From Alphaproteobacteria bacterium (GTDB taxonomy: Bacteria > Pseudomonadota > Alphaproteobacteria > UBA9219 > RFNS01), in NCBI GenBank assembly GCA_037200005.1, contig JBBCGY010000001.1, positions 42,416 through 106,415 of the forward strand: 64,000 bases of DNA, written 5' to 3'. The notes beneath the pieces were generated by a model. It did no database searches and had not been told where the DNA came from. It saw nothing but the letters and a program-made list of their open reading frames with translations. The position numbers were made by a program, and so were the translations under genes. Each line of letters begins with the position of its first letter. Position 1 is the stretch's first letter. This document shows positions 7,151 to 27,187 of this stretch, one piece after another.

Positions 7151-7233
7151 GGAACAATGTGAATGGTCTGTTAGGGGCAAAAAACTCGTCACATCCAACT
7201 TATCAAGTACGTTCCTCGGAAAGAGCTACTCAC

Positions 7234-8319
7234 ATGACCTTTGACCGCAACACACCCTACAACGATCTTCCGCTTTTGCCACCGGCGCAGATCGACCTGG
7301 AAACAAAGCCTATTCTCAAAAAGGCGATCACGGCGAATATCGCGCTTGCCAAGCTGTTCGACGCGGGAAAGTTGATTCCCAATCAGGCGCTTCTGGTTCA
7401 GGCGATTGGGTTGCAGGAAGCCAAGCTGTCCAGTGAAATCGAGAATATCGTCACGACCAATGACGATCTTTACCGCGCTTTCGCGGATGAGGGCGTGCAT
7501 TCCAGCCCCGCAGCCAAAGAGGTTCTGTTTTACAAGGACGCGCTCTGGAAAGGCTATAACGCGATCAAACTGGAAAAGCGCCCGCTCTCCACGCGCCTTT
7601 TTGAAGATACGTTCCGCATTATCAAGCAATCCTCTGACGGCATCCGGCGTTTGCCGGGCACGAAATTATCGAACCCGGCAGGCGAGATTATCTACACGCC
7701 GCCCGAAGGCGAAAATCTTTTGCGTGACAAGCTCTCCAATCTCGAAAAATTTCTTTACGCCGAAGACGGGCTTGATCCTTTGATCAAAATGGCCGTCATG
7801 CACTATCAATTCGAGGCTATTCATCCCTTCACCGACGGCAATGGGCGCACGGGGCGCATTCTCAATCTTTTATATTTGATCGAGTGCGGGTTGCTGGAGA
7901 TTCCGGTTTTGTATCTATCCCGCTACATCATCGAACACAAAACGGATTATTATCTGGGACTGCGCGGCGTAACCGAGGGGCAAAATTGGGAATCGTGGAT
8001 TCTCTATATTCTCGATGCGATTGAAGTGACGGCGCAGATGACCAGAGATCGGATTCTTCGCATTCATTCTTTAATGGACAAGACGGCGGAGGCGGTCAAA
8101 GCCCAGGCTCCCAAAATCTATTCCAAAGACCTTATTGAGGTGATTTTCCGCCAACCCTACTGTAAAATTCGCTTTTTGGAGGAGGCAGGGATTGCCCAAA
8201 GGCAGACCGCCTCCACTTATCTCTCCAAATTAGAGGCTTTGGGTATTTTGGAGTCCGTAAAGGCTGGACGCGAGAAATATTATATTAATCCGGCATTCTT
8301 TAACCTTTTGGCAGAATGA
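7234..8319 (+). CDS. Fic family protein (class II with SxxxEN inhibitory helix motif), C-terminal winged HTH
   Basis: Fic active-site motif HPFTDGNGRTGR. The N-terminal helix carries SSEIEN, matching the (S/T)xxxE(G/N) auto-inhibition motif. The typical start is M-x-FDRNTPY..LPxLPP. Confidence 0.85.
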   Translation: MTFDRNTPYNDLPLLPPAQIDLETKPILKKAITANIALAKLFDAGKLIPNQALLVQAIGLQEAKLSSEIENIVTTNDDLYRAFADEGVHSSPAAKEVLFYKDALWKGYNAIKLEKRPLSTRLFEDTFRIIKQSSDGIRRLPGTKLSNPAGEIIYTPPEGENLLRDKLSNLEKFLYAEDGLDPLIKMAVMHYQFEAIHPFTDGNGRTGRILNLLYLIECGLLEIPVLYLSRYIIEHKTDYYLGLRGVTEGQNWESWILYILDAIEVTAQMTRDRILRIHSLMDKTAEAVKAQAPKIYSKDLIEVIFRQPYCKIRFLEEAGIAQRQTASTYLSKLEALGILESVKAGREKYYINPAFFNLLAE

Positions 8320-11500: not shown

Positions 11501-11680
11501 GTTGTCTCCGTTCGCAATAATGTGTCTGTTGACTGGATGCACCGCGATAGCGCCCGCGCCAAGTTGCGCATCGAAGTCAAAAAGATTCTCAAGAAATATG
11601 GCTATCCGCCAGATTTACAGGATGCAGCGGTGCAACTGGTGTTGCAGCAGGCCGAAGTTTTGGCCCCACTCTGGGCATAA
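8504..11680 (+). pseudogene. hsdR: Type I restriction endonuclease subunit HsdR, split into three ORFs by two frameshifts (~9560 and ~10140)
   Basis: Three successive overlapping ORFs (8504-9565, 9540-10163, 10133-11680) together cover a ~1058-aa HsdR: N-terminal nuclease region, DEAD-box helicase motifs ([12 protein letters not shown]) and C-terminal domain. The first shift is in a T7 homopolymer (DQLFF|NTFS). Confidence 0.85.
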
Positions 11681-11772
11681 CAATCGCTGACGGCGATCTT
11701 TGGAATTCTATGTAAGAGGCTGCAACAGGTAAGGCCAGATTATGACCGAGAGGAACGAAGATTCTTAAACAA

Positions 11773-12903
11773 TCAAAGCGCCAGCCGGGGCCGGATTAGC
11801 GACAAAGGCCGGGCAGTGGAAAGCTGGAGGCCAACAGCTTCGTTTGGAACATTGGAAAAATCGGTAATAAGCGGCAGCATGGCGTTAGGGCCAAGGGCGC
11901 GTGGTGAGGCACCTAGTTCTTTAAGAGCGGAAACAATTTCCGGTTCATTTAGCGCATGAATGCGCATAAGGGGTTGCGTAGTGTCAGGAATCCATTTCCT
12001 GCGCGAGACTTCATCGCGGCCCGTCGAGATAAGTGCCGCGACCACGTCCTTGAGTTTGTCGCCTTTCGGCAGATTGCCGTTGCTGGTGATTTGAGCGCGG
12101 ACAATCGGCTCGCCCAGGAAGGTCGAAATGGCTTCCGTAAAACTGGCGGCGATTTTCTGATTGCCGTCCTCACTTTGCCAATTCGCCAGGAACACATTTG
12201 GCAAGCTGGAGTCTTTGCCGGGTTTCGCGGCGAAGTCCGCGAGCTGGATTGCAACTCGTGAGCGGCCCGTTTCAATGGGCGCATCGCCGATAAATTCCAG
12301 AACGGCGCTATCGTCCGGCGCTCCCATCGTCGCACCGAGTTTCTTGAAGATGCCGGTCATGGCCGCATTGCCGCCCGCATATTCGCCGACGCGGCCGCGC
12401 GAGACGAGGCCATAGGGCGAATAGCCTTGTTCGCGGCTGACGGATCGCCGGATTTTCTCGTAGATAAAATGCGAGCCAAGTCCAATGCCATTCGGGTATT
12501 CCGCGCTTTTTGTGCGATTACGGAATTCCTGGGATAGTTCCGGCGACACATAGGTATCTTCGCCATAGATAGCAGGATAATGGCGGAAATCCCGGCCATT
12601 GCGTTCCGTGAGAACGGTCGGAAACTCGATTGAGCCACCGGCGAGTTTGGGGCTGCAATTTTCCCACTCCACGATGGCGAAATAAGCCTGAATTTTATTT
12701 TTCTTGATGGCCTCGATAACTTTGCCGAATTTGGCGTTATCAGCGGACGCTCCATGCGTCACGGCTTCACTTTCGACGATTCTATAAAGAATCTCATCAA
12801 GCGCCATATGATGAACGACGTCCGTACCGTTCATGCGCACGATGCTGGCTTTGGCGTTTCCCGGCAGCAGACCGGGCATATTATCGAGCGCAACGGAAGA
12901 CAT
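11773..12903 (-). CDS. uncharacterized conserved protein (376 aa), paralogue of 24000-25298
   Basis: Shares HYPAIYGEDT, YPNG(I/L)GLG, GxVSxGRVxEYxG and KxGAT motifs with the 24000-25298 ORF. It overlaps the upstream XRE regulator gene by 4 bp, so the two are co-transcribed. Confidence 0.6.
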   Translation of the reverse strand: MSSVALDNMPGLLPGNAKASIVRMNGTDVVHHMALDEILYRIVESEAVTHGASADNAKFGKVIEAIKKNKIQAYFAIVEWENCSPKLAGGSIEFPTVLTERNGRDFRHYPAIYGEDTYVSPELSQEFRNRTKSAEYPNGIGLGSHFIYEKIRRSVSREQGYSPYGLVSRGRVGEYAGGNAAMTGIFKKLGATMGAPDDSAVLEFIGDAPIETGRSRVAIQLADFAAKPGKDSSLPNVFLANWQSEDGNQKIAASFTEAISTFLGEPIVRAQITSNGNLPKGDKLKDVVAALISTGRDEVSRRKWIPDTTQPLMRIHALNEPEIVSALKELGASPRALGPNAMLPLITDFSNVPNEAVGLQLSTARPLSLIRPRLAL

Positions 12904-12905
12904 GA

Positions 12906-13556
12906 TTATATTTTCCCCTTGTCGTCGGGGATCGAAGCATTTTCCCAGAATGATTCAAATTGCTCGACATATCTTTCGGCCAAGGGCTTGGAGTGTATCG
13001 AAACGACTTCGACATTATGATCGCTGCGATGCACCGCCTGGGCGATATAGTCATTATAGACGTAATAGGGAATGAGGATTTTCGTCGTCTTATCCAGCCA
13101 GCGATATTCGCAATAGCTGGCGGAGAAATTATAGTCGCCATCCAGGATAAGAACGCGGGCGTCAAGATTCGGAAGCTTGCTCATTCTTTCCATATGCTCG
13201 GTCGCATAATCTTGCGCATAGGAAAGGGTCTTGCCGTCGCTGGAATTAAACTGGCGAATGCGTCCACCGTCTTTCAGCGTTTCGTATATATGATCGAGGA
13301 ATTGTCGGTATCCGGCTTTGCCCGAAAAAACCCTGACTTGGTTTCTCCGCATCCGAACGCCCTCGTCATCCAGGAATTCGACGCCGTGCCGGTCGAAAGC
13401 ATTGGTTATGCTGGCGATGGTCTTCTCATGCGGTTGTACCGTATCGGCCTCGATTTTGCTCACGGTCACGCGGGTAAGCCCGGCCTCCCTAGCCAAGTCT
13501 TCCGCTTTCCATTCCAGTAAGCTGCGCGCTGCGCGAATTTGACGCCCGGTAATCAT
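12906..13556 (-). CDS. XRE-family HTH transcriptional regulator with ~150-aa C-terminal domain
   Basis: N-terminal HTH_XRE (IRAARSLLEWKAEDLAREAGLTRVTVSKIE). It is the first gene of a two-gene minus-strand operon. Confidence 0.7.
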   Translation of the reverse strand: MITGRQIRAARSLLEWKAEDLAREAGLTRVTVSKIEADTVQPHEKTIASITNAFDRHGVEFLDDEGVRMRRNQVRVFSGKAGYRQFLDHIYETLKDGGRIRQFNSSDGKTLSYAQDYATEHMERMSKLPNLDARVLILDGDYNFSASYCEYRWLDKTTKILIPYYVYNDYIAQAVHRSDHNVEVVSIHSKPLAERYVEQFESFWENASIPDDKGKI

Positions 13557-13827
13557 AAAGTTAGCACTAGCATATGGTTTAGTTAAAAATAGATAACAAT
13601 CGAGATAACTAAAATTGGCAATAACATATTAATATTTGTAAAAACATGCCCTGTCAATTCAGAAACATTAGTTTCATGTAAAATTTACTGATACCATAAG
13701 TATATTCTTCTTGATTCCCAGTCGGCTTTGCATTTATGTTCCCAAATATTGGTAATGCCTAATGGTTGAAATTAGCTCGATTAAGCCATTTAAAGCGATT
13801 TTCAAGGGGAATTTCAGATGACCAATT
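13557..13827. promoter_or_regulatory. AT-rich (~30% GC) divergent promoter region between the XRE operon and the rhs regulatory cassette
   Basis: A 270-bp non-coding stretch with strongly depressed GC, flanked by divergently transcribed operons. GAAGGGGA lies ahead of the first small ORF. Confidence 0.5.
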
Positions 13828-13991
13828 CATTTAACGCTTATGTCATGCGCCAGGGCGAACCGGCCATTACCGCCATCATCGAAAATTGGGAAAGGCTTGT
13901 CGGCTTGCGGGCCGAGGCCGAAACGCCGCTTGAGCAGCGCTGGGCGGCGATGATGCATGGTTATGAGCCACAGGCAATGGCAGTCGCATGA
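13828..13991 (+). CDS. small ORF (54 aa), first of four translationally coupled genes
   Basis: Not in the ORF track because it is under 60 aa. RBS AAGGGGA. Its stop overlaps the next start as ATGA. Confidence 0.35.
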
Positions 13992-14278
13992 GCCGGAAAG
14001 CCGAAAAACCTTTCAGCCCGGTTGACGAGATGCAGCTTTCTCAGCCGATGGGCAATCGAACCGCCGAACATTTCCGCGATGCCCTGGATGATTTGGAGCA
14101 TGAGGCGACCGCGCAGGACGCAAAAATAAAGCAATTGCGCCAAGCTATTCTGCAACGCGCACAAGAACTCGACACTACCGTTTGCCAATCCTGGCTGGAT
14201 TCAGAAATCGAAAAAGCGGACCACCTCGCGTTGGAAGCGCGGCTGGAAAAACTCATCAAGTTCCTATCGGAAAAATGA
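13988..14278 (+). CDS. small hypothetical protein (96 aa), helical/charged
   Basis: ATGA-coupled to both neighbours. Confidence 0.5.
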   Translation: MSRKAEKPFSPVDEMQLSQPMGNRTAEHFRDALDDLEHEATAQDAKIKQLRQAILQRAQELDTTVCQSWLDSEIEKADHLALEARLEKLIKFLSEK

Positions 14279-14493
14279 TGATGGCGAATTTTCATGAACG
14301 CCCCATGACATATAAAAAGCTCGTCGCTCGTTACGGCCATGACATGGCTTTCGATTTACTCGTCACTATCGAGAGCCTTGCGAAGATTAAGCACGACATC
14401 ATCGAGATCAACGAAGAAATTCGTCTGCAACGCGCGCTGGAAGTTTTGGACGAGGCGGAATTCGGACAGGCAGATAAAGGCGGGGTCAAATGA
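14275..14493 (+). CDS. small hypothetical protein (72 aa)
   Basis: Starts MMMANF. ATGA-coupled on both sides. Confidence 0.5.
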   Translation: MMMANFHERPMTYKKLVARYGHDMAFDLLVTIESLAKIKHDIIEINEEIRLQRALEVLDEAEFGQADKGGVK

Positions 14494-14738
14494 TTTCCGG
14501 TAATAACATACCCAATAAAAAGCTTGCGCCGCGTGAAATCGAAGTCATGACCTTAACGGCGCGTGGCAAGACGACCACCGAAATTGCAATGCTTCTCTCG
14601 ATTGCCGAGGATACAGTTAAGACTCACATCAAACGATCCTGCCAGAAATTGAACGCGGCCAATAAAACACACGCCGTTGCTCTCGTTATGGCTCGCGGCA
14701 TAATAGAATGTTCCTGTTGTCACCCGAAAGGGGGATAG
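14490..14738 (+). CDS. stand-alone LuxR/GerE-type HTH transcriptional regulator (82 aa)
   Basis: LuxR-type HTH signature (LAPREIEVMTLTARGKTTTEIAMLLSIAEDTVKTHIKRSCQKL). It lies directly upstream of rhs. Confidence 0.7.
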   Translation: MISGNNIPNKKLAPREIEVMTLTARGKTTTEIAMLLSIAEDTVKTHIKRSCQKLNAANKTHAVALVMARGIIECSCCHPKGG

Positions 14739-14820: not shown

Positions 14821-17800
14821 ATGGTGGCACCTGCGAAGAAATTTCACGAAGCGAACGGCGAACTCACCAATGAGGCAGGGGCAACGCGACCGCCGCTCTC
14901 GAGGAACAGCCTCTGGCGGACACTGCGCCCCGGGATCTCGGTGGGAGTAAGCCTCGCGGCAGTCGTCGCTTGCGAAAGCGGCGAACCCAACGCTTCAAAT
15001 GACAACATCGTTTCGATTTCCCAAGCGATAGGCTCTGCGACAATCTATAGCTTGCCTACCAATGTTTTGATGCCCAATGCCATCAATAATCAAAATCTCA
15101 TTGTGGGCCAGGGTCTGCCTTCGATCTATGATGCCAACACGGGAACATTTAGTAGCCTTGAAGTAAACCAGCCTTCGGGGGCGGTCACTTCCTATGCAAT
15201 TAGCAATGCCGGTCACGTTGTCGGCAATTCATTCAATGTTGGGCCGGTTTCCAATTCGGCGTTCATTTCACAGGGCGGACATTTGTCCGATCTATACGCC
15301 GGCAACAACAACGGGGTGACCAGCGTCGCTTACGGCGTCAACAATTATGGCCAAGTCGTCGGCACGATGCCGGTGACGGTCAACGATGCGAACAATAGTC
15401 CACATCCTTTCACGCATGCGTTCTCGTGGCAGGGCAGCGTTACAGACCTTACACCGAACTACTATGGAAATTCAGCCGCCTATGGCATCAACGATGCTGG
15501 GCAGATCGTGGGAACGATAGGAACTGCGGGGGTCAAGTGGCAGGGCGGATCGTCAAGCACGCTGCCGAGCGGCACCAGCACGCCCGCCATGATCAACAAT
15601 GTCGGTCAGATCGTCGGGACATATAGTTCAGGCGGTTCGTCGCACGCTTTCCTTGTGCAGAGCGGCACCCTGACCGATCTCGGAGCCATACAGGGAAGCA
15701 CACCTGTGAGGATCAACAACAAAGGACAAGTTACGGGCGGCTTCTACAACACGGGTGCCGGACAATATTACCCGAGCGTCTGGCAGAATGGCGTCGTGGT
15801 TACGATTCCCACTCTGTCGGGCATTCCCGCAGGCTGGTCTATCACGTCGATAAACGGCATCAATGACAGCGGAACCGTCGTAGGGCAAGGCACGCTTTCG
15901 GGTTCTTCACGGGGTTTTTACCTAACTTCGCCGCAGCTTCTGAACTACGCCATTGCCGGAAAGCCCTACGATCCGAAAGCGAATGGTGGTGAGGATTCGG
16001 CGTCAACCCCGACAGACGATCTATGTGGAACTCATGGCATGTGTGTGCCCAACGCGCAATTGCTGTCGGCCAGCTTGAATTTGAACGATACGCCGATTGG
16101 GTATCAGCCGCCCAAAGGGCCACCAGCCTATATCCGGCTTACATATAATCATCGTGACAGTGTCGCGCCCAGCAGCACTTCCTCGCATGTTGGGCCAAAC
16201 TGGACTCTGAATGTCATTTCTTACATTCAGGATGATCCGGCCAGCCCGGGCCAGAGCGTCACGCGCAACGTGGCGGGCGGCGGTATCGTCGACTACACTT
16301 TTGAGGCAGGGCAGTTCAATACCACCACGGGTGCATTCGGGCCGGAGAAGCAAACCGGGGCGATCTTGAAACGGACTCCCGCGACAGGGTTCAGCGCCAG
16401 TGCTTCCTATGAGCTTTCCTTTCCCGATGGGGCCAAGCAAATATTCTCCTACCCGGATGGAAGCTTCAATTATCCGCGCCGCGCATTCCTGACGGATATC
16501 GTTGATGCCTCAGGCCAGGGCCTGCATTTTGGCTACAATTATCTTCAAGGAACTTTCGGCGCGATCAATTGCACGCCGGGATGTCCGCAACTGCAATCAG
16601 TTTCTGATGCTAATTTCCGTGCAACAAACTTCGTCTACGGTGACGCATCTAATGTCTTGCGCGTGACGCGGATTAATGACCCGTTCGGGCGTCACGCCGA
16701 TTTAGCTTATGATGGCAGCGGACGGCTTTCGTCAATCACGGATGTGATCGGCATTCAATCGTCTTTCACCTATGACACCACCGACCCTACTTTCATCAAA
16801 AAGCTAACGACACCCTATGGCGATAGCAATTTCGTCTTTGGGCAAGATACGGCGACGGATCGTCGTTGGCTCACACTCTCCGATGCCGTGGGCAATACGG
16901 AAAAAGTGGAATACCGGGGCAGCAGCGCCAGCGGCATAGCGGCGTGCGACAAAAACACGAGCGATGCGTCGTGCAGTGTCTCGACCTCCGTGCCGACAGG
17001 CATGCCTAACGGCATCAATAACGCCGATCTCGACAAGCGCAACACCTTTGTCTGGAACAAATGGATGTATGCGAATGGCTATGGCAGCGATTACACGCAG
17101 GCGAATGTTACCCATTGGCTCAAGGACGGTGCGGGCAATCCCGTGGGGATTCCGGAAAGCGTCAAGCCGCTGTACGAATCCCGCATTTGGTATAATTATC
17201 CCGGCCAGAACGATCCTAGCACCCCAGGAACCCTGTCTGTGCCGAGGGCGACGGGCCGCGTGATCACCGATCCGCTTTACGGGCAAGCGCCGCAGAATCA
17301 GGTTTACCAAAGTCAATATAACAGCCTCGGCAAGCCCACCTTGACCGTCGATCCCTACAAGGTTTCAGGCAACAACAATGAAGGCCGAACTACACGCATG
17401 ACCTATGATGCCTCCGGCGTCGATCTTTTGACGGTGGAACAGAAAACCGGCAGCGGAACGCCGGGGACATGGGCGACGATTGCTTCCTACGTCTATACCG
17501 ATCCGACAGAACAGCCCACATCGATCCACAAACCGATCCGCTATACCGACGCGGCGGGGCAAACTTATAAATTCAAATACAATGGCGACGGCCAATTGAT
17601 CTATGCCGCCAATCCCTACAACGATACGACGTATAATGAATATCATCCGTCCGGCAAGCTCCTGCGGACGACCATGCCTGTGCCGAGCGTAAACTGGAAT
17701 ACCATCGATTATGGAACCGATATTAACGGCGCGCCGACGGGGGCGAGCAACAGCAGCGCCCTAAGGGACACCGCCATTACCTACGACTCCGCCGATCGTC

Positions 17801-20202
17801 CGTATGACGTGACCGACCGGATGGGTCTGGTGAAGCGTTTCGGCTACGACAATCTCGACCGGGTAACGCGGGTGGATTACGCCCCCGGCACGGCGGGCAC
17901 GACCTATGAGACGAACACCTATACCAACCTCGACCTGACATCGCACCGCGACCGGCTTGGCCGGGTTAGCACCGATGTTTACACGGCGAACCGGCAGCTG
18001 TGGCTGAGCTTCAATGCTTCGGGAACGCGGCGGGGCTTCACCTATTACCCGAACGGCGCGCTACAAGGCTACTACGACGAGAACGACCATCCTACAATCT
18101 ACGGCATCGACGGCCAGGGACGCGCCAACGCCGTCGTCTATCCCAATGGCAACCAGACGAATTACTACTACGATGATGGCGGGCGGATGCGCACCATTGT
18201 CGATCTCGACGGCTCGAACCAGCGCTGGCGGAACATTAAATATAACGTCGATAATAGCGTCCATATCCGCGACTATACCAACCCGGCAAATCCGTCCGAT
18301 CCCGTGGTTCTGGCGACGACAACCGCGACCTTCACCTACGATCCATGGTTCCCCGGACAAATGACTTCAATGGCCGATGCCAGCGGAACGACCAACTATA
18401 CATACAAAACCGTAGGCACCGTCGGCGCCTTACAACTCGCGACCGAAAATCCGCCGACGGTAAGCGGCGACGCGGATAAAATCACCTACACCTATGACCA
18501 GAAGGGACGGCTCGCCTCGCGCCAGATCGGTATCGGCACGGCGAGCGTGCTGCCGCAGGAAAGCTGGGTGCGCGACACCTATGGCCGCATTAACAGGCAC
18601 ATCATTCCCGACGGCAACCTGTTCTATTACGACTTCAACGGCGCGAGCAATCAGGTGACAATGCGCGCGTTTCGCAATCAGGCGCTGACGGAGATCGACC
18701 CGCTGAATACGCGCACGATGATGAGCTACGACACGGCGGCGAACGACTCGCGGCTGCTGACGATCAACAACCCGCCCTACGACAACAGCGCGCCCGGCGC
18801 GCGGGACTTCACCCTCAATTGGGGATCGTCGCCCGCCAATCCGTACGTTCCGGCGACGATCACCGACTCCGCTGGAGGCCCCGGCGGGGCGTGGGGACAG
18901 CGGGTGTGGACGATGGGCTATGACGCGCGCGACCGGCTGACCTCGGCGGTCGCCGCCGACCGCAGCTATTCGTTTACCCTGGACGCGCCGGGCAACGCGA
19001 CGAGCTTCACCAGCACGCACTATCCGAGCGGCGGGCTGTATAGCTTTAACTCGACCTACAACACGTCGAACCAGATGACGGTGGCGAACGGCAACGCGCT
19101 GATCTACGACCCCTACGGCAACCTCGTCACCCACACGAACTACCGCAGCTTCAAGTACGACGCCGAGAACCGCCTGATCGAGGTCGACTTCCCCGCCGCG
19201 CCCGCCGACAAGGTTGAGATGCAATATGACGGTCTTGGTCGCCGCACGCAGATCAAATCCACCATCGGCGGCGTCGTCACGACGCGGAACCTGCAATGGT
19301 GCGCCCAGACGACCTCGCCGCCGTTCCAGGGCGCGGCGGAAGAGATATGCGTCGAGCGCGACGCATCGGGCGGCATGCAGCGCATGGTCTATCCCGAGGG
19401 CGAATATCGCGCCAACGGCGGCCGGTACTTTTATGAACGCGACCAGACCGGCAACATCCGCGACGTGATGAAGATGGCGGCGGGATTGACGACCGCCGCG
19501 CGCGATAGCTCCTTCAACTACACGCCTTATGGCGGCGTCGACGGCAAAGACGGCACTGCCGAGCCGCTGCAGCAGTTCGCGGGACTGCTGTATGAGAAGA
19601 ACAGCAACCTGTTCCTCTCCCGCACCCGCGCCTATGCCCCATGGATCGGCAGATGGCTCCAGCGCGATCCGATTGGGCAGAATGGGGGGAGTAATGTTTA
19701 TGAGTATGCGGGGGCGAGTCCGATTAACAAGATTGATCCGAGCGGGTTGCAGGGGGTGCGACCTGGGTTAATAGAAACGATGCGACCTACAATAGGAGTG
19801 CCACCAGCAGCGGGGATCAACGAGGGGGCAGGAAATTACGCCGATTATCTTCAAGAAAATGGAGAAATGATGGGTGATCTAGCCACCCTTTATAGGGCCA
19901 CTAGCGCGGCGGTTGCCGGTGCGAGCAACCAATCAATGCGAGAGGATATTGAAAAAGCAAAAGTATGCACATCGTTTGGAAACAGCATGTCGGCGGATCA
20001 GCCGTTATGGTGCGGGCCTGGCGGATGCGCGGATAGCGTCAGGCAGCAGTGGCTGGATGCGACCGGCGGCTTAGTGTATCCACAAATCATCGAGTCTTTC
20101 AAAAAGAGGTTTGAACCGGCTCCCTCGCGGCTTGTGTCGACGCCGATGCGTGGCAATGACTTCGGTAATTCGGTTTTATTCCCTAATGTGGGCCCAGGTT
20201 AG
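14821..20202 (+). CDS. Rhs-family polymorphic toxin (1793 aa): N-terminal HAF repeats, RHS/YD repeats, RHS core, DPxGL cleavage motif, ~150-aa C-terminal toxin domain
   Basis: Repeated NxxGQ(V/I)VG and HAF motifs in the first ~350 aa. Many YDxxGR(L/R) repeats. RHS core YFYERDQTGNIRDVM. IDPSGLQ (PxxxxDPxGL) at ~19740, followed by a unique tail. A lipobox-like VVAC lies near the N-terminus. Confidence 0.9.
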   Translation: MVAPAKKFHEANGELTNEAGATRPPLSRNSLWRTLRPGISVGVSLAAVVACESGEPNASNDNIVSISQAIGSATIYSLPTNVLMPNAINNQNLIVGQGLPSIYDANTGTFSSLEVNQPSGAVTSYAISNAGHVVGNSFNVGPVSNSAFISQGGHLSDLYAGNNNGVTSVAYGVNNYGQVVGTMPVTVNDANNSPHPFTHAFSWQGSVTDLTPNYYGNSAAYGINDAGQIVGTIGTAGVKWQGGSSSTLPSGTSTPAMINNVGQIVGTYSSGGSSHAFLVQSGTLTDLGAIQGSTPVRINNKGQVTGGFYNTGAGQYYPSVWQNGVVVTIPTLSGIPAGWSITSINGINDSGTVVGQGTLSGSSRGFYLTSPQLLNYAIAGKPYDPKANGGEDSASTPTDDLCGTHGMCVPNAQLLSASLNLNDTPIGYQPPKGPPAYIRLTYNHRDSVAPSSTSSHVGPNWTLNVISYIQDDPASPGQSVTRNVAGGGIVDYTFEAGQFNTTTGAFGPEKQTGAILKRTPATGFSASASYELSFPDGAKQIFSYPDGSFNYPRRAFLTDIVDASGQGLHFGYNYLQGTFGAINCTPGCPQLQSVSDANFRATNFVYGDASNVLRVTRINDPFGRHADLAYDGSGRLSSITDVIGIQSSFTYDTTDPTFIKKLTTPYGDSNFVFGQDTATDRRWLTLSDAVGNTEKVEYRGSSASGIAACDKNTSDASCSVSTSVPTGMPNGINNADLDKRNTFVWNKWMYANGYGSDYTQANVTHWLKDGAGNPVGIPESVKPLYESRIWYNYPGQNDPSTPGTLSVPRATGRVITDPLYGQAPQNQVYQSQYNSLGKPTLTVDPYKVSGNNNEGRTTRMTYDASGVDLLTVEQKTGSGTPGTWATIASYVYTDPTEQPTSIHKPIRYTDAAGQTYKFKYNGDGQLIYAANPYNDTTYNEYHPSGKLLRTTMPVPSVNWNTIDYGTDINGAPTGASNSSALRDTAITYDSADRPYDVTDRMGLVKRFGYDNLDRVTRVDYAPGTAGTTYETNTYTNLDLTSHRDRLGRVSTDVYTANRQLWLSFNASGTRRGFTYYPNGALQGYYDENDHPTIYGIDGQGRANAVVYPNGNQTNYYYDDGGRMRTIVDLDGSNQRWRNIKYNVDNSVHIRDYTNPANPSDPVVLATTTATFTYDPWFPGQMTSMADASGTTNYTYKTVGTVGALQLATENPPTVSGDADKITYTYDQKGRLASRQIGIGTASVLPQESWVRDTYGRINRHIIPDGNLFYYDFNGASNQVTMRAFRNQALTEIDPLNTRTMMSYDTAANDSRLLTINNPPYDNSAPGARDFTLNWGSSPANPYVPATITDSAGGPGGAWGQRVWTMGYDARDRLTSAVAADRSYSFTLDAPGNATSFTSTHYPSGGLYSFNSTYNTSNQMTVANGNALIYDPYGNLVTHTNYRSFKYDAENRLIEVDFPAAPADKVEMQYDGLGRRTQIKSTIGGVVTTRNLQWCAQTTSPPFQGAAEEICVERDASGGMQRMVYPEGEYRANGGRYFYERDQTGNIRDVMKMAAGLTTAARDSSFNYTPYGGVDGKDGTAEPLQQFAGLLYEKNSNLFLSRTRAYAPWIGRWLQRDPIGQNGGSNVYEYAGASPINKIDPSGLQGVRPGLIETMRPTIGVPPAAGINEGAGNYADYLQENGEMMGDLATLYRATSAAVAGASNQSMREDIEKAKVCTSFGNSMSADQPLWCGPGGCADSVRQQWLDATGGLVYPQIIESFKKRFEPAPSRLVSTPMRGNDFGNSVLFPNVGPG
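18996..19750. repeat. direct repeat copy 1 (~755 bp, ~98% identical to 21505-22258): rhs core-end segment
   Basis: Near-identical nucleotide and protein sequence (GNATSFTSTHYPSGGLYSF...PINKIDPSGL) in both copies. The antisense ORF-track entries are duplicated too (19140-19385 = 21651-21896). Confidence 0.85.
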
Positions 20203-20207
20203 TCCTA

Positions 20208-21478
20208 TGAAAAAGTTTACTCTATTGCTTGTCGCGCTTTGTAGTCTGACAATGTTACCGGCTCATGCCGCTGACCAAGACTCCAAACCACCCGTCATTG
20301 ATATTCCTGCCACGCGAAAAGAGGCGGAGTCTGGAGATGCTCGGGCTCAATATAATCTGGGCATAGCTTATCTCAACGGTTACGGGGTGAAGAAAAATAA
20401 AGATGAAGCTATTGAATGGATTTACAAAGCAGGGAAGAACAATGATGCCCTCGCAATATATTTCTTGGGCAGCGCATATCATGATGGCGACCTTTTGCCA
20501 CAAGACTACGCCAAGGCTATGAAGTGGTATCACAGGTCCGATGAATTATACGGCAGTCCCCTTGCGCAGAATATGCTTGGCGTGATGCACGAAAACGGTC
20601 AGGGGGCTCCACAGAATTATGAAGAAGCGGCTAGGTGGTATCGCAAAGCTGCCGAGAATATTTACGCACCGGCTCAATCCCATCTTGGATTCCTATACTA
20701 CGCTGGACGCGGCGTTCCTAAGGACGATCAAAAGGCTCTATATTGGCTTAAGAAAGCAGCCATACAAAACGATGCGCCAGCAAAGCTTATGCTAGGCATT
20801 ATGCACTATAAAGGCGAAGGAGTGGAAAAGAATTACGTTAAAGCTGTCAGCTATTTTCGCGAAGCCGCAGACGTCGGAATATCGATAGCTGAACGATATT
20901 TGGGAAATATGTATTACCACGGCGAAGGCGTTTCCAAGGATGAAGCCCAGGCTGTGTCTTGGTGGCGCAAAGCCGCCGAACAAGGGGATAGGGAGTCGGA
21001 AAAGATCATAGGTGGTATGTACTATTATGGCACAGGAGTGTCGAAGGATTTTTCCCAAGCCGTTTTATGGTGGCAAAAAGCTGCGGAAAAGGGTGATGTC
21101 GATGCTCAATGCAACTTGGCGAAAGCTTACTATCATGGAGAAGGTATAGGAAAAGATGAAACTCAAGCTGTGTTATGGTGGCGGAGGGCCGCGGCACAAG
21201 GACATGGAGAATCCCTCCTTTATTTAGGACAAGCGTATTTTAGTAGCATAGGCGTATCGCAAGATGATGTGCAGGCTTATATATGGCTAAGCTTGGCGGC
21301 TACAAGAAATCAGTCGTCAGCGGTTGCAACACTCACGGAACTCGAAAAGTCCATGACGCCGGAACAAATCGCTGAAGCCAGAAAACGCGTGGCAGAATGG
21401 AAACCCAAGCCTGAGCCAAAGCCTGCCCCAATAGGGCCAATACCCGAAATTCTAAAAGAAGTCCGTGAAGATTTATGA
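20208..21478 (+). CDS. Sel1-repeat protein with signal peptide (candidate periplasmic immunity protein for Rhs-CT1)
   Basis: Signal peptide MKKFTLLLVALCSLTMLPAHA. At least 9 Sel1 repeats (AQYNLGIAYLNGYGVKKNKDEAIEWIYKAG...). Sits immediately downstream of the rhs toxin tip. GC ~45% versus ~62% for the rhs body. Confidence 0.8.
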
Positions 21479-22668
21479 TCTCGACTTCGAGGATGCATTT
21501 GGGCAATGCGACGAGCTTCACCAGCACGCACTATCCGAGCGGCGGGCTGTATAGCTTTAACTCGACCTACAACACGTCGAACCAGATGACGGTGGCGAAC
21601 GGCAACGCGCTGATCTACGACCCCTACGGCAACCTCGTCACCCACACGAACTACCGCAGCTTCAAGTACGACGCCGAGAATCGCCTGATCGAGGTCGACT
21701 TCCCCGCCGCGCCCGCCGACAAGGTTGAGATGCAATATGACGGTCTTGGCCGCCGCACGCAGATCAAATCCACCATCGGGGGCGTCGTCACGACGCGGAA
21801 TCTGCAATGGTGCGCCCAGACGACCTCGCCGCCGTTCCAGGGCGCGGCGGAAGAGATATGCGTCGAGCGCGACGCATCGGGCGGCATGCAGCGCATGGTC
21901 TATCCCGAGGGCGAATATCGCGCCAACGGCGACCGGTACTTTTATGAACGCGACCAGACCGGCAACATCCGCGACGTGATGAAGATGGCGGCGGGATTGA
22001 CGACCGCCGCGCGCGACAGCTCCTTCAACTACACGCCTTATGGCGGCGTCGACGGCAGAGACGGCACCGCCGAGCCGCTGCAGCAGTTCGCGGGACTGCT
22101 GTATGAGAAGAACAGCAACCTGTTCCTCTCCCGCACCCGCGCCTACGCCCCATGGATCGGCAGATGGCTCCAGCGCGATCCGATTGGGCAGAATGGCGGC
22201 GCGAATGTTTATGAATATGCGGGGGCGAGTCCGATTAACAAGATTGATCCGAGCGGGCTTCAAAGCATCCAGAATGCGGATGACTGGATAAAACAGAGAA
22301 ATGCCCCTGCTCAGCCGTCAAATAGTATTTGGAGTGAGATCCTAGATAAAATCAGAGAACCTGTGTCTAGAAATGAAGCCATTAGTGAGATTACAAATTT
22401 CCGTCAATCTGGAGAGGCCCAAACTGAAGCACAGATAGCTAGAATGCTCATGGGTTTACCCGTCGAACCTGATTTTTCTGTTGCTATAGGAGGGGCTGAA
22501 GGTGAGCAAGATCTTGGCAGAGCGATTATGTCGGTAGCGCGCGAGATTTTGCGCCGCCCTGCGGAGCAGTCGTGCCCAATAGTTCAGAGAAAAGTCTTCG
22601 GTCAATCCTTGCCACCAAGTGATTTTGGTGACAAGAATCTCCCACTGCCATCTATATTAACCCTTTAA
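21475..22668 (+). CDS. orphan rhs C-terminal cassette: duplicated core-end plus an alternative 136-aa CT toxin domain
   Basis: The first 260 aa match Rhs residues ~1390-1650, including DPSGLQ. A different tail follows. Its start overlaps the Sel1 gene stop (ATGA), and it lacks the N-terminal 1400 aa. Confidence 0.8.
   Translation: MISTSRMHLGNATSFTSTHYPSGGLYSFNSTYNTSNQMTVANGNALIYDPYGNLVTHTNYRSFKYDAENRLIEVDFPAAPADKVEMQYDGLGRRTQIKSTIGGVVTTRNLQWCAQTTSPPFQGAAEEICVERDASGGMQRMVYPEGEYRANGDRYFYERDQTGNIRDVMKMAAGLTTAARDSSFNYTPYGGVDGRDGTAEPLQQFAGLLYEKNSNLFLSRTRAYAPWIGRWLQRDPIGQNGGANVYEYAGASPINKIDPSGLQSIQNADDWIKQRNAPAQPSNSIWSEILDKIREPVSRNEAISEITNFRQSGEAQTEAQIARMLMGLPVEPDFSVAIGGAEGEQDLGRAIMSVAREILRRPAEQSCPIVQRKVFGQSLPPSDFGDKNLPLPSILTL
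21505..22258. repeat. direct repeat copy 2 of the rhs core-end segment
   Basis: See copy 1. The offset between copies is 2509 bp. Confidence 0.85.
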
Positions 22669-22700
22669 AGAATATGAGTGGAATTGAGGGAGTTAATGCA

Positions 22701-23489
22701 ATGAAGAAGATAATTATTATTACGGCATTTGCTTTGATGGTCGCATCAGTTCAAGCTTATGCTGCCGTCCAGGATGAAAAAGCCGACAGTTTGTTAGGGC
22801 ATCGCCTGTCCGAACAATTACGGAAAACAGAAGCGCAGACAACTCTTGCTGCGGGAAAAGAGCTATTTAAAACAGGCGAAGGTCTTTCTAAGGATAATGT
22901 CGATGCAGTAAAGCTATTTCGCGTAGCTGCCAATCTTGGCTCGATGGAGGCACAAACAATTCTCGGCGCTGCATACCTTAGTGGCGATGGAGTGCAAAAA
23001 GATATTCCTGAAGCTTTAAAATGGATACAAAAATCTGCCGCCCAAGGAGACGCCAAGGCTCAACATTTATTGGGTGTATTGTATCATGAAGGATCAGACG
23101 TAAAAAAAGACAATGTGAAATCGTTAAAATGGATACGGAAAGCAGCGGAGCAAGGTTTGCCATCGGCACAATTTAGTCTTGGCACTATGCTTTCTAAAGG
23201 ATATGGAACACACCGAGATGAAACTTCAGCGATGGAATGGTTTCATAAATCCGCAAACCAAGGCTATGCTAAGGCCCAAATTATGCTCGGAATTGCATAT
23301 CACCTAGGTAAAGATATATCTAAAGACGATATTCTAGCTGATCAATGGCTGATATTGGCCGGGGAAAAAGAGGCACGTGATGATTTGGAAAAATCCATGA
23401 CCCCCGAACAAATCGCCGAAGCTATAAACCGCGCGGCGGAATGGAAGCCGAAACCACCAACCAAGCCCGATCCTGAATCCAAACCGTAG
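22701..23489 (+). CDS. Sel1-repeat protein with signal peptide (candidate immunity for orphan CT2)
   Basis: RBS GAGGGAG. Signal peptide MKKIIIITAFALMVASVQAYA. About 5 Sel1 repeats. The C-terminal KSMTPEQIAEA...EWKPKP tail is shared with the first Sel1 protein. Confidence 0.8.
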   Translation: MKKIIIITAFALMVASVQAYAAVQDEKADSLLGHRLSEQLRKTEAQTTLAAGKELFKTGEGLSKDNVDAVKLFRVAANLGSMEAQTILGAAYLSGDGVQKDIPEALKWIQKSAAQGDAKAQHLLGVLYHEGSDVKKDNVKSLKWIRKAAEQGLPSAQFSLGTMLSKGYGTHRDETSAMEWFHKSANQGYAKAQIMLGIAYHLGKDISKDDILADQWLILAGEKEARDDLEKSMTPEQIAEAINRAAEWKPKPPTKPDPESKP

Positions 23490-23513
23490 CGTCTAATTTC
23501 AAGGCAAGAAGCG

Positions 23514-23882
23514 ATGAAATTTATCCGATTTTATGTCGTTGCATCTCTTGTTCTTGGAGTTTTGCAGATTGCTGACGGCATCGTTCTTGTTTCGTATGGC
23601 ACAATAGCAATTAGTAATATTTTCTCTTTGCTCGAAGCTATATGGGTTGTTGTCTCGATGATAGCGCTTTGGTTTTTCATAAAAAGCAAATTTCCAATAT
23701 TCATTCCGACGACATATATTTTATACAATGTTGCTGGCTGGGGATACGGGGCCTATTTGTTTTCACAATTGCAAAATTCTGACCAAATAATCGACGTTCC
23801 TCTTTGGTTTAAAATTGCGGGTATTTGTTTTGGCATCTATTTTGCCTGCGTAAATTTCATATTGTATAAACGAAAACTGTGA
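23514..23882 (+). CDS. small 4-TM membrane protein (122 aa), possible orphan immunity protein
   Basis: Four hydrophobic helices. Very AT-rich. It is the last gene of the rhs immunity array. Confidence 0.5.
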   Translation: MKFIRFYVVASLVLGVLQIADGIVLVSYGTIAISNIFSLLEAIWVVVSMIALWFFIKSKFPIFIPTTYILYNVAGWGYGAYLFSQLQNSDQIIDVPLWFKIAGICFGIYFACVNFILYKRKL

Positions 23883-23999
23883 ATCATCTTCCAGCAAGCT
23901 GGGTAGCGCACTGACTTTGGCGATGAAACTAAATTGATTGATTGCCCCATGCTGGCATTAAATTGTATATTCTGAGGTACATTTTAGGGCGGCATATTT

Positions 24000-25298
24000 A
24001 TGAATCAGGCATTTAACTCCGATCCCTATAAGCGCCTGCCCGGCGGCATCCGGGCGGCGGTTTTGCCGATGCAGGGGGCCGACCTTGTGCATCAAGCCAC
24101 GCTCGGCGCGGCGCTTGAGCATATCATCGGTCATGAGGCTGCGGTTCATGAAGCGGCTTTCCAAAGCCAGCATTTTCACAAGATTTTGAAGGCAAGCGAG
24201 AAAGGCGAAATCAACGTCCTTTTTCTTATGGCCGCGATGCATACATGTTTGCCGAAATTGGCGGGCGCGGCGATTGAACTTCCGACCGTCATTACGAAAT
24301 GGCAAGGCAACGAGTTTAAGCACTATCCCGCCATCTATGGCGAAGATACATGCGTTCTGCCGGAATTCTCCAAAACCTTCCGCGAAAAGACGGCGGGCGC
24401 GCTTTATCCTAATGGCCTGGGCCTTGGCACATGGTTCGCCAAAGAACGGATCGAAGGATCGGTATCGGGCCGCTCTGGGTTCGCGCCTCTCGGCATGGTG
24501 TCCCAAGGCCGTGTTTGTGAATATTCCGGGCATAACGGGCCGATGATTGGACTCTTGAACAAATTCGGTGCAACGACTGCGCCGGACGCGAGCGCAGTCC
24601 TCGAACTCGACGGCCTCACTCCCACGATGAAAAGCCGCTGGCAAGTGCCGGTCGATACTGAAGCCTTGGCCGATCAGAACGGCAAGCCCCTCGACAATAT
24701 TTTCGTAACGAGATGGTCAGGCGAAAGCGGCAAGCAACAAATCGCCGCAAGCTTTACGAAAACCATCTCCACCTTTACCGGCGATCCTATTGTGCGCGTT
24801 CAGCTAACGAGCAACGGCAATCTTCCGAATGGCGATATGCTGCAAAATGTACTATCTTCACTGCTGGCTGCCGGTCACGACGAAATCCGCGAGCGGAAAT
24901 GGGCCATAGCAGGCGAATTAAAAAGTGTTGCTAGCAACCGAAGCCCGATCATCCCGCTCCTTGCTTCCCGGCAGCAGCAAATGGCTGCGCTTCTGTCCGC
25001 AGGGCGAGATGAAATTCTATCCCGGCGTATCGGCATGGATGATTTAAGCCATATTTTCGGCGGCGCGGTTCCGACAATGCGGATTCATGCGCTCAGGAAG
25101 CCGGAAATAGTCGCGGCCTTGAAAGACTTAGGTGCACAACCCCGTATTCTCGGCCCCCACGTCATGCTGCCCGCGATTATGGACTTCGCCAATATGCCGC
25201 AGGAGGCGCTTAATTTCGATCTGCCCCCGGCGAGGCCGCTGAATACGGTCAATCATAGAGGCGCAACCAGCACGCCGCTTTTCTCTCTGGCGGCATAA
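24000..25298 (+). CDS. uncharacterized conserved protein (432 aa), paralogue of 11773-12903 with an internal duplication/insert
   Basis: About 55% identity to the 376-aa protein over the shared core (HYPAIYGEDTCVLPEF...YPNGLGLG...GMVSQGRVCEYSG). Two similar segments (LLAAGHDEIRERKWA / LLSAGRDEILSRRIG) indicate an internal repeat. Confidence 0.6.
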   Translation: MNQAFNSDPYKRLPGGIRAAVLPMQGADLVHQATLGAALEHIIGHEAAVHEAAFQSQHFHKILKASEKGEINVLFLMAAMHTCLPKLAGAAIELPTVITKWQGNEFKHYPAIYGEDTCVLPEFSKTFREKTAGALYPNGLGLGTWFAKERIEGSVSGRSGFAPLGMVSQGRVCEYSGHNGPMIGLLNKFGATTAPDASAVLELDGLTPTMKSRWQVPVDTEALADQNGKPLDNIFVTRWSGESGKQQIAASFTKTISTFTGDPIVRVQLTSNGNLPNGDMLQNVLSSLLAAGHDEIRERKWAIAGELKSVASNRSPIIPLLASRQQQMAALLSAGRDEILSRRIGMDDLSHIFGGAVPTMRIHALRKPEIVAALKDLGAQPRILGPHVMLPAIMDFANMPQEALNFDLPPARPLNTVNHRGATSTPLFSLAA

Positions 25299-25526
25299 CC
25301 ACCTCTTGATCTAAATTCCAACAATAGATCGACTTTCCGCGAGGGCGCGGAAAGCGGTTCCCGCCGCCGTTCTGCCGCGTAAAGAACGCGGCGCGGTGGC
25401 TCGCTACGCGCTGCGCCGACAAGAGCGGCTTACGCTTTCGCGCCCCCAAGCGGGCGCATTTGCTTACCGGCATGAGTGAGCGCGGCCAGCACCACTCTCT
25501 ATTTCCAACCGCCTTTTTCTAACCCC

Positions 25527-25553
25527 CTCTTTCGCCGAAAGAGGGTTTTTTCA
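25527..25553 (+). terminator. Rho-independent terminator (ccctcttt-cgccg-aaagaggg + TTTTTT)
   Basis: Perfect 8-bp GC-rich stem, 5-nt loop and a T6 tail. It sits at the 3' end of a ~230-nt GC-rich non-coding stretch. Confidence 0.65.
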
Positions 25554-25584
25554 TTTCAACCACAGCATAACAAGGGAGGAAGAT

Positions 25585-25776
25585 ATGAGCCAGGAAGCAT
25601 ATCGCGTGAAAGAATTCTGCAACCGCTACGCCATTTCAAAAGCCAGCTTCTACCGGGAAACAGCGGCGAAGCGGCTGCATATCCTAAAACGTGGCCGTAC
25701 AACGCTCGTTGCCCGCACCGAAGCCGAACGCTGGTTTGAAAGCCTTGGCCAAGGCCAGCCGCAGCAATCAGCCTGA
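25585..25776 (+). CDS. AlpA/Xis-like phage-type transcriptional regulator (63 aa)
   Basis: RBS AAGGGAGGAAG. AlpA-like HTH (FCNRYAISKASFYRETAAKRLHILKRGRTTLVARTEAERW). Immediately upstream of the integrase. Confidence 0.7.
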   Translation: MSQEAYRVKEFCNRYAISKASFYRETAAKRLHILKRGRTTLVARTEAERWFESLGQGQPQQSA

Positions 25777-25843
25777 TCGCATTCAATATCCCGAATATTT
25801 CCAAAGCCATTTTTCGTCAATCTTATTCTCATGGAGGCATGTC

Positions 25844-27031
25844 ATGCGCCATACGGGACATATTCGCCAGCGTTCAGAAGGGAGTTTCGAGCTTCGCTAT
25901 AGCATCGGCACCGATCCGGTCACGGGAAAATGGAAAGTCAAAACCGTCACCGTTAAGGGAACGCGCAAAGCTGCCGAGAAAGAATTGCGCCGCATACTCG
26001 ATGCAATCGATGACAATGATTATGTCGAACCCAATAAAATCACTACCCGTGATTTTTTGACACAATGGCTTGAAACAATGCGTTCCCAGATAACCCCCAA
26101 ATCCTATGAAAGCTACGCTGAAATAGTCGATAACTTCCTTATCCCAACTCTTGGCGGTCATATTCTGGCGAAACTTGCTCCGGCTGTTATCCAAAAAGCC
26201 TACAATGGATGGGAAGCTGGTGGCCGCAGGGATAAAAAGGCGGGCGGGCTGGCGGCGCGTTCCCGTCTCTATATCCACCGCATCCTTAAATCGGCACTCA
26301 AACATGCCGTGCAAATACAGCTAATCGCCCGCAATCCCGCCGACGCGGTTAAAGCGCCGCGCGTCAAGAAAGCCGCCATAACTACATTGACCGTGGATCA
26401 ATCGGCGGCGCTGCTCGATGCCCTGTCCGGCAAGCCGCTTTATTGGCCTGTGTTGCTTGCCCTAACAACGGGCATGCGCCGGGGTGAAATTCTGGCGCTT
26501 CGCTGGAAGAATATCGACTTTGAAAAGAAAACTGTTCGCGTCGTCGAAAGTCTAGAGCAAACCAACACAGGCATTCGCTTCAAGGCTCCGAAAACGGAAC
26601 GGAGTCGTGCCGTCATGTTGCCGGATTATGCCGTTGAAGAACTGCGGAGACTGAAAAAAGAACAGGAGAAAAAATTGTCGGAATCAGGAATCGGCCAAAC
26701 CACTGAAACGCTGGTTTGCGGTCGCTATGACGGCGAACCGCTATGGCCTACCTCACTTACGCATGAATTCGTGAAGGCCATGAAGAAACTGCCGAAACTG
26801 CCGCGCGCCAGATTCCATGATTTGCGCCATTCCCATGCCACGCAACTCCTGACAGCAGGAATCCATCCCAAAATCGCGCAAGAACGGCTGGGACATACCA
26901 CGATTACGACAACCCTAGACCTCTATTCCCATGCGACGGACACCATGCAAGACGAGGCTGCATCAAAGCTCGACAATGCCTTCCGTTCTGCTATAAAGGC
27001 CCGTTCCGACCAAGCGCCACGACTAGGATAA
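25844..27031 (+). CDS. tyrosine-type site-specific recombinase/integrase (phage integrase family)
   Basis: Catalytic region RFHDLRHSHATQLLTAGIHPKIAQERLGHTTITTTLDLYSH (R...HxxR...Y). The most likely start is MRHTGHIRQRSEG rather than the extended ORF from 25691. Confidence 0.9.
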   Translation: MRHTGHIRQRSEGSFELRYSIGTDPVTGKWKVKTVTVKGTRKAAEKELRRILDAIDDNDYVEPNKITTRDFLTQWLETMRSQITPKSYESYAEIVDNFLIPTLGGHILAKLAPAVIQKAYNGWEAGGRRDKKAGGLAARSRLYIHRILKSALKHAVQIQLIARNPADAVKAPRVKKAAITTLTVDQSAALLDALSGKPLYWPVLLALTTGMRRGEILALRWKNIDFEKKTVRVVESLEQTNTGIRFKAPKTERSRAVMLPDYAVEELRRLKKEQEKKLSESGIGQTTETLVCGRYDGEPLWPTSLTHEFVKAMKKLPKLPRARFHDLRHSHATQLLTAGIHPKIAQERLGHTTITTTLDLYSHATDTMQDEAASKLDNAFRSAIKARSDQAPRLG

Positions 27032-27111
27032 ATTGGTTCTGTAGCAATTTCTGTAGCAAAATCGATTTTGCTTCCGGTAGGAATACTCTAAGTGTATGTT
27101 TTTGCTGATGT

Positions 27112-27187
27112 GACCTTGTAGCTCAGCCGGTAGAGCATCTGACTTTTAATCAGGGGGTCGCGGGTTCGAACCCCGCCGAGGTCACCA
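27112..27187 (+). tRNA. tRNA-Lys (anticodon UUU) with encoded CCA
   Basis: Cloverleaf: acceptor gaccttg/cgaggtc; D-arm gctc-agccggta-gagc; anticodon arm tctga-cTTTTaa-tcagg; T-arm gcggg-ttcgaac-cccgc; discriminator a; CCA. Confidence 0.9.

Follow-up and report, generated by a model that had tools for sequence, protein, structure and literature searches.

We asked why the end of an rhs gene occurs twice, within a few kilobases, in the genome of an uncultured alphaproteobacterium, and whether the second copy could provide the first with a different C-terminal tip (CT). The two copies lie in a stretch of 64,000 nucleotides (nt) of contig JBBCGY010000001.1 (positions 42,416 to 106,415 of the forward strand), which we call the window and number from its first letter. 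We favour, with a probability of roughly 0.8, the answer that this is a polymorphic Rhs toxin locus, in which a main rhs gene and its immunity gene are followed by one orphan rhs-CT/immunity module. The features on which the argument draws are listed below (aa, amino acids; ORF, open reading frame; GC3, G+C fraction at third codon positions).

14821 to 20202, plus strand: main rhs gene, 1793 aa, with leader, HAF repeats, RHS/YD shell, Rhs-associated core and tip CT1
18990 to 19752, plus strand: repeat copy 1, the last 254 codons of the Rhs core through DPSGLQ, GC3 0.83
19720 to 19749, plus strand: demarcation motif PINKIDPSGL of the main gene, which fits PxxxxDPxGL and forms the final part of the TIGR03696 match
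19753 to 20202, plus strand: CT1, a variable tip of 149 aa, presumed toxin of no known family
20207 to 21478, plus strand: Sel1-1, 423 aa, nine repeats (PF08238, E = 4.3e-86), presumed immunity gene for CT1
21475 to 22668, plus strand: orphan rhs-CT ORF, 397 aa (9 unique codons, 254 core codons, CT2), NCBI MEJ0061673.1
21501 to 22263, plus strand: repeat copy 2, with its own PINKIDPSGL at 22231-22260
22264 to 22668, plus strand: CT2, a variable tip of 134 aa, presumed toxin of no known family
22701 to 23489, plus strand: Sel1-2, 262 aa (PF08238, E = 1.7e-40), presumed immunity gene for CT2; NCBI MEJ0061674.1 has the same start
23514 to 23882, plus strand: small, strongly hydrophobic ORF of 122 aa directly 3' of Sel1-2, G+C content 0.361

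The main rhs gene and the orphan module

Is the longer gene a genuine rhs gene? It is a bona fide one, as it encodes RHS/YD repeats (PF05593 RHS_repeat, E = 3e-24; TIGR01643, E = 1.3e-22) and, at residues 1567-1643, an Rhs-associated core (TIGR03696 Rhs_assc_core, E = 2.5e-18) that ends in PxxxxDPxGL. The NCBI annotation, which uses a later start, names it 'RHS repeat-associated core domain-containing protein'. HAF repeats (TIGR02913 HAF_rpt) are present near the N-terminus. The leader, RTLRPGISVGVSLAAVVAC, has its hydrophobic maximum at residues 37-51, followed by a lipobox-like VVAC (both read from the sequence), and is predicted to be of the Sec/lipoprotein type. Pfam and NCBIfam profile scans matched no PAAR domain in the main Rhs, and type VI secretion system (T6SS) families had no match among the ORFs scanned in window 1-35 kb, which comprise restriction-modification, Fic, helix-turn-helix (HTH), integrase, two-component and housekeeping genes. 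Judged by the gene itself and by the scanned 35 kb, the main Rhs lies outside the PAAR-Rhs subclass of T6SS proteins.

The second ORF is, by its layout, an orphan rhs-CT/immunity module: it shares the core with the main gene, to which a different tip is fused in frame, and it has its own gene in the immunity position. Its core stub matches TIGR03696 (E = 2.9e-20). The ORF lies downstream of the main rhs gene and holds only 3' core sequence, without the N-terminal delivery region. In both copies the tips part ways right after DPSGL(Q), and beyond this point CT1 and CT2 are unrelated (best BLASTP E = 4.4). An earlier note on the window had likewise described a core end that was copied downstream and joined to a different C-terminal domain. 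It had given this second domain 136 aa; the domain is indeed distinct, and its length after DPSGLQ is 134 aa. The arrangement of a main rhs gene with an orphan rhs-CT/immunity module is already well known, and the present locus is a clean example of it in an uncultured alphaproteobacterium.

What are the two tips? Neither CT1 nor CT2 has a Pfam match or a PDB sequence match at E ≤ 10, and a word-indexed search of 5.8 billion proteins found no homologue of either. With the two tips concatenated, a complete HMMER search of 1.84 billion representative proteins returned only self matches and one spurious match, and phmmer searches of all ORFs of the related loci with CT1 and CT2 gave no matches at E ≤ 10. 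P0043, a surface protein with an 8-fold repeat, was considered as a tip homologue and its match was judged spurious. Single-sequence AlphaFold2 models had a mean pLDDT (predicted local distance difference test) of 35 for CT1 and 48 for CT2, which is too poor for fold searches. We also considered frameshifts as the cause of the missing homologues and rejected them: the G+C content by codon position is coherent through both tips, and throughout CT2 and the sequence downstream of it a short-read contig agrees at 100% identity. GC3 drops from 0.83 in the repeat to 0.52 in CT1, 0.44 in Sel1-1, 0.40 in CT2 and 0.36 in Sel1-2. This sharp fall at the motif is consistent with imported tip/immunity cassettes. 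We infer that CT1 and CT2 are toxic.

Each tip is followed by its own Sel1-repeat gene, as the earlier note had also observed (PF08238; E = 4e-86 and 2e-40 in round figures). Sel1-1 and Sel1-2 are ~41% identical, and each begins with a signal peptide read from the sequence, MKKFTLLLVALCSLTMLPAHA followed by AD in Sel1-1 and MKKIIIITAFALMVASVQAYA followed by AV in Sel1-2. We presume that both are immunity proteins, from their position and from precedent: each lies in the canonical position behind a tip, Sel1-1 is the sole gene between CT1 and the orphan, and the Sel1E protein of Klebsiella pneumoniae offers a model. Sel1E, whose model is based on PA5087 of Pseudomonas aeruginosa (PDB 5jkp), gives protection from VgrG4 (PMC7108748). 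Like the genes described here, those of Sel1E and PA5087 encode Sel1-like-repeat proteins beside an antibacterial toxin, with paralogous copies in tandem. In contrast to the presumed role of Sel1-1 and Sel1-2, what they neutralise is the C-terminal domain of a VgrG or a phospholipase and not Rhs tips, and the similarity to PA5087 is at the level of generic repeats: 5jkp_A matches Sel1-2 at only E = 1.6e-6, under many generic Sel1 proteins, and is not listed for Sel1-1. If the Sel1 proteins confer immunity, their signal peptides would place the action of the tips in the periplasm or envelope. At their 3' ends, both Sel1 genes carry a 68-nt patch (21344-21411 and 23388-23455) whose copies are 82% identical, far more than the ~41% for the proteins as a whole. 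Its translation reads ...SMTPEQIAEA..AEWKPKP, and either a conserved tail of the subfamily or a trace of cassette joining may lie behind it.

The four genes are tightly packed. Sel1-1 begins 4 nt past the rhs stop, the ATG of the orphan overlaps the TGA of Sel1-1 as ATGA (21475-21478), and the Sel1-2 frame opens 5 nt past the orphan stop. The ATG at 22674 would give a Sel1-2 of 271 aa; the likely start is the ATG at 22701, which has GAGGGAG 8 nt before it and lies 32 nt past the orphan stop. Thus, where the four genes do not overlap, the gaps between them are no longer than 5 nt (or 32 nt ahead of Sel1-2, with the start at 22701), and the genes are therefore probably co-transcribed.

The direct repeat and exchange of tips

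How similar are the two core ends, and are they in register? In a local alignment, 18990-19746 and 21501-22257 form a direct repeat with 743 identities in 756 aligned positions (98.3%). A blastn self-comparison of the window gave a pair of 757 nt with 97.9% identity (E = 0), and the repeat search placed the starts of the copies 2511 nt apart. The earlier note had put a repeat of 755 bp and ~98% identity at 18996; the repeat and its identity are borne out, with a start at 18990 and a length of 757 nt, and the offset of 2509 that it reported has to be replaced by 2511. Ungapped extension through DPSGLQ (19752 and 22263) gave 744 identities in 763 positions (97.5%), and 9 of the 19 differences between the copies crowd into the final 69 nt. 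At the level of codons there are 13 synonymous and 3 non-synonymous differences (dN 0.009, dS 0.082). Every synonymous change of a single base falls on a third position, and no indel between the copies breaks the frame. Since the spacing of 2511 nt equals 3 x 837, the copies are in register, and a crossover simulated inside the repeat yielded one uninterrupted Rhs-CT2 ORF of 1778 aa. Blocks of perfect identity within the repeat measure 173, 130, 84 and 77 nt, which is ample for RecA-dependent exchange.

From these data we propose how the locus may work. If the protein behaves like the Rhs proteins studied so far, its tip would be cleaved at PINKIDPSGL and kept within the shell. The exported Sel1-1 presumably neutralises CT1, and the exported Sel1-2 presumably neutralises CT2. 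The likeliest origin of the arrangement would be C-terminal displacement, in which a tip and its immunity gene were acquired horizontally and recombined into the core, and the displaced tip remained downstream on a core stub. Because this stub is 757 nt long, ~98% identical to the main core end and in register with it, RecA-type recombination between the copies could place CT2 on the full-length Rhs. By a deletion route, CT1 and Sel1-1 would be lost. By an alternative route, a tandem duplication would come first and recombination second, so that Sel1-1 would be kept. If Sel1-2 is co-transcribed with the main gene, it would be made constitutively and would shield the cell against siblings or neighbours armed with CT2. 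The earlier note had proposed that recombination would delete CT1 with its immunity gene and put CT2 on the full-length Rhs; the offset of 3 x 837 and the simulated ORF of 1778 aa agree with this, and the route through duplication refines it.

The closest model is the STM0291/STM0292 locus of Salmonella Typhimurium, where two regions share 522 bp at 95% identity and recombination during passage, which PCR and sequencing confirmed, led to deployment of the orphan toxin (Koskiniemi et al. 2014, PMC3967940). A plain deletion would drop the main immunity gene in Salmonella, and its authors therefore argue for duplication followed by recombination (PMC3967940). As in the window, an rhs gene of full length and its immunity gene are followed there by a core fragment with a different tip and its own immunity gene. 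The two loci differ in several respects. The homology tract of the present locus is longer and more similar (757 bp at ~98%, as opposed to 522 bp at 95%), which should make switching easy to seek in reads. The Salmonella Rhs is linked to a T6SS, whereas the present one has a predicted Sec/lipoprotein-type leader and HAF repeats, and its annotated neighbourhood contains no T6SS gene. The Salmonella orphan lacks translation initiation signals, whereas the present orphan has its own ATG, coupled to the stop of the preceding gene, and the presumed immunity proteins of the present locus are exported Sel1-repeat proteins. Finally, switching was demonstrated in Salmonella, while in the present locus we infer it. 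The locus also resembles the orphan cdiA-CT/cdiI and rhs-CT/rhsI modules (Poole et al. 2011, PMC3150448) in its tandem tip/immunity cassettes, its PxxxxDPxGL boundary and its compositional break; it differs from them in having one orphan only and in that both tips are sequence singletons.

Several points weigh against a switchable toxin locus. Neither tip has a detectable homologue or a fold predicted with confidence, and it is by position alone that they are presumed to be toxins. The top PDB matches of the Sel1 proteins are generic Sel1-repeat proteins, with PA5087 weak and far down, and it is somewhat unusual that two unrelated tips are paired with two paralogous (41%) immunity proteins. 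In 13.5-27.3 kb, a scan for promoters and terminators gave nothing usable and no excess of sites over shuffled controls. The Rhs-CT2 recombinant was not found: the 90% cluster of the Rhs protein consists of two start-codon variants of one gene, a scan of genome contigs with the Rhs found nothing and gave no second strain, and a scan of metagenome contigs with the orphan found one unrelated Rhs contig only. Similarly, the members of the orphan cluster are start-codon variants from the same contig, and a look-up of Sel1-1 matched only the source metagenome-assembled genome (MAG); the locus is carried by one assembly and one short-read contig. Furthermore, the low dN/dS between the copies could predate the arrangement and stem from full-length genes in different lineages, and it is not proof of present selection on the orphan.

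Could the orphan instead be a relic of displacement with no role in switching? Sel1-2 would then be retained as orphan immunity against CT2-deploying neighbours, while the stub and CT2 decay. The missing recombinant in the protein clusters and in the genome and metagenome scans fits such a relic, as do a decayed stub with stop codons in a related locus (L003, see below) and the possibility that the synonymous bias of the differences is older than the displacement. On the other hand, the orphan still forms an intact ORF of 397 codons, with a start that is coupled to the upstream gene. In addition, recombination is mechanistically hard to avoid with long, in-frame homology of 98%, and such events have been called frequent (PMC7043789). 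We regard a relic as a possibility that deserves some weight, although it is clearly the less probable view, and the two views are not mutually exclusive.

Sel1 function, expression of the orphan and the assembly

We next asked whether the Sel1 genes could have a role other than immunity. They might encode accessory or host-interaction factors or chaperones of the Rhs, with true immunity encoded elsewhere, e.g. for CT2 in the 122-aa membrane ORF. The generic PDB matches of the Sel1 proteins, together with the weak match to a known immunity protein, and the pairing of paralogous proteins with unrelated tips would be accounted for in this way, and a small hydrophobic ORF does directly follow Sel1-2. 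This ORF had no family match in Pfam, NCBIfam or PADLOC; it is possibly a further gene of the orphan-immunity type or part of the CT2 cassette. However, Sel1-1 is alone between CT1 and the orphan, and the CT1 cassette would otherwise have no immunity gene. Both Sel1 genes are in the canonical immunity position, 4-5 nt past the tip stop (32 nt if Sel1-2 starts at 22701), and Sel1-repeat immunity proteins are documented. A role other than immunity therefore seems unlikely to us, and we keep to the presumption that Sel1-1 and Sel1-2 protect against CT1 and CT2, respectively.

Can the orphan be expressed by itself? The ATGA that joins it to Sel1-1 was noticed in the earlier note and was read again at 21475-21478; it would allow translational coupling, and low-level expression from the orphan's own ATG is plausible. 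Such a product would have no export signal and almost none of the shell, and delivery would thus fail. One might see in the orphan an intracellular module similar to a toxin-antitoxin pair, expressed from its own ATG or from an internal promoter. There is precedent in the main and orphan Rhs tips of Salmonella, which act as type II toxin-antitoxin-like modules (Starsta et al. 2020, PMC7043789), and the orphan tip of the present locus would in principle, as in these modules, be translatable without the delivery part. In contrast to these modules, the presumed immunity protein of the present locus carries a signal peptide; an exported Sel1-2 is a poor fit to a cytoplasmic antitoxin and would not neutralise a toxin in the cytoplasm. 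Moreover, no recognisable Shine-Dalgarno sequence precedes the orphan ATG, and no sigma-70-like promoter was found on the plus strand within either repeat copy. Thus, we consider such a module quite improbable.

Is the repeat real? A Logan short-read contig (SRR28211700) corresponds to window 22228-27138 with 100% identity over 4.9 kb, and its start lies exactly 30 nt ahead of position 22258, the first base that is specific to CT2. The Logan graph uses k = 31. A break of the contig where 31-mers cease to be common to both copies is what is expected of a true two-copy repeat, and the synonymous bias of the differences between the copies indicates diverged coding sequence and not sequencing or assembly error. 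An artefact, i.e. a false duplication or mis-join, which the earlier note had held to be fatal to its proposal, is hence very improbable: the source is a MAG and the nearby hsdR, split across three frames, could hint at indel errors, but the 19 differences are nearly all at third positions with no frame-breaking indel, both junctions are in frame with the flanking ORFs intact, and the independent short-read contig is identical and branches exactly at the repeat edge.

Related loci and genomic surroundings

The closest relatives of the main Rhs (P0002, P0003 and P0004) are 34-36% identical to it and have the same HAF-plus-RHS architecture. In an alignment with these three proteins, conservation extends through G1642 and the sequences are unrelated beyond it. 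No two tips are alike among these relatives and seven further loci, which come from several phyla, and their lengths are 113-182 aa. A conserved core with tips that all differ points to a polymorphic Rhs toxin whose tips can be exchanged. The gene after the P0002 Rhs is weakly Sel1-like and encodes an N-terminal membrane anchor. No T6SS families were found in the scanned gene neighbourhoods of three relatives, which include integrases, and a literature search on HAF-repeat Rhs proteins found no paper.

Three related loci show other arrangements of core ends. In L003, a decayed core-end stub with stop codons (15039-15098) lies downstream of the locus's own rhs gene, which indicates that tip displacement recurs in the lineage. 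In the metagenome contig L009, a 553-nt repeat of 75% identity (1094-1644 and 3340-3878) matches the Rhs core end in both copies, and the Terriglobales MAG L016 contains two full-length rhs genes in tandem (8855-13903 and 18211-23379). From their sequences, L003, L009 and L016 appear to be other stages of the same process. The relatives in L010, L012 and L016, which are more distant, share the shell and a conserved plug-like region (NVGPKWTLN, SYIQDDP). In their N-terminal 500 aa, the HAF repeats are replaced by other modules, among them weak matches to PEP-CTERM-type surface protein families and to a bacteriocin-exporter peptidase region. This suggests that modules may be swapped at the Rhs N-terminus too.

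What could the locus mean beyond this genome? Its wider value lies in an Rhs family with HAF repeats and a Sec-type leader that has no visible link to a T6SS in a diderm cell, and in two tips without relatives next to exported Sel1 proteins where immunity genes are expected, a hint that the toxins act in the envelope. Tentatively, and with more doubt than belief, one may see here a T6SS-independent class of Gram-negative systems, in which a Sec-exported, possibly lipid-anchored HAF-repeat Rhs would carry envelope-acting tips, exported Sel1 proteins would give immunity, CT1 and CT2 would represent two new folds, and the coupled orphan would serve as a spare that is ready to be swapped in. Absent experimental follow-up, the locus leaves the current understanding of Rhs systems unchanged.

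The rhs module lies in a part of the window with a low G+C content, which is ~50% in window 1 to ~27 kb compared to ~61% in 33-64 kb, and exceeds 60% only from ~32 kb. Just upstream of rhs are four small overlapping ORFs (13818-14738, plus strand; 57, 96, 72 and 82 aa), the last of which is of the LuxR/GerE type and is a possible dedicated regulator of the rhs operon:

14490 to 14738, plus strand: LuxR/GerE-type HTH gene, 82 aa (PF00196 GerE, E = 1.3e-17)

The low-G+C part also carries a type I restriction-modification system and an XRE-type HTH gene. The hsdR of this system (8504-11680, plus strand) consists of three overlapping ORFs in different frames (HSDR_N/SWI2_SNF2; SWI2_SNF2; T1R_D3/T1RH-like_C) and probably represents a pseudogene. 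Between hsdS and hsdR are a Fic gene of the SoFic type (7159-8319) and an ORF of 517 aa without assigned function. A PADLOC scan of the unassigned ORFs of the island matched only SoFic and generic HTH families.

A tyrosine integrase (region 25691-27187), whose length is 395-446 aa according to which start is used, ends 80 nt before a tRNA-Lys(UUU) gene (27112-27187), on the 5' side of the tRNA, and the low-G+C island extends to its left. No att-type direct repeats of the tRNA-Lys were found in the window, where the only match is a palindromic one to the T-arm that adjoins the tRNA. Finally, two ORFs flank the rhs module in opposite orientation, one of 376 aa (11773-12903, minus strand), which overlaps the XRE-type HTH gene (12906-13556), and one of 432 aa (24000-25298, plus strand). 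Neither had a Pfam, NCBIfam or PADLOC match. Their products are 44% identical over ~410 aa, and the pair might mark a mobile or duplicated unit.

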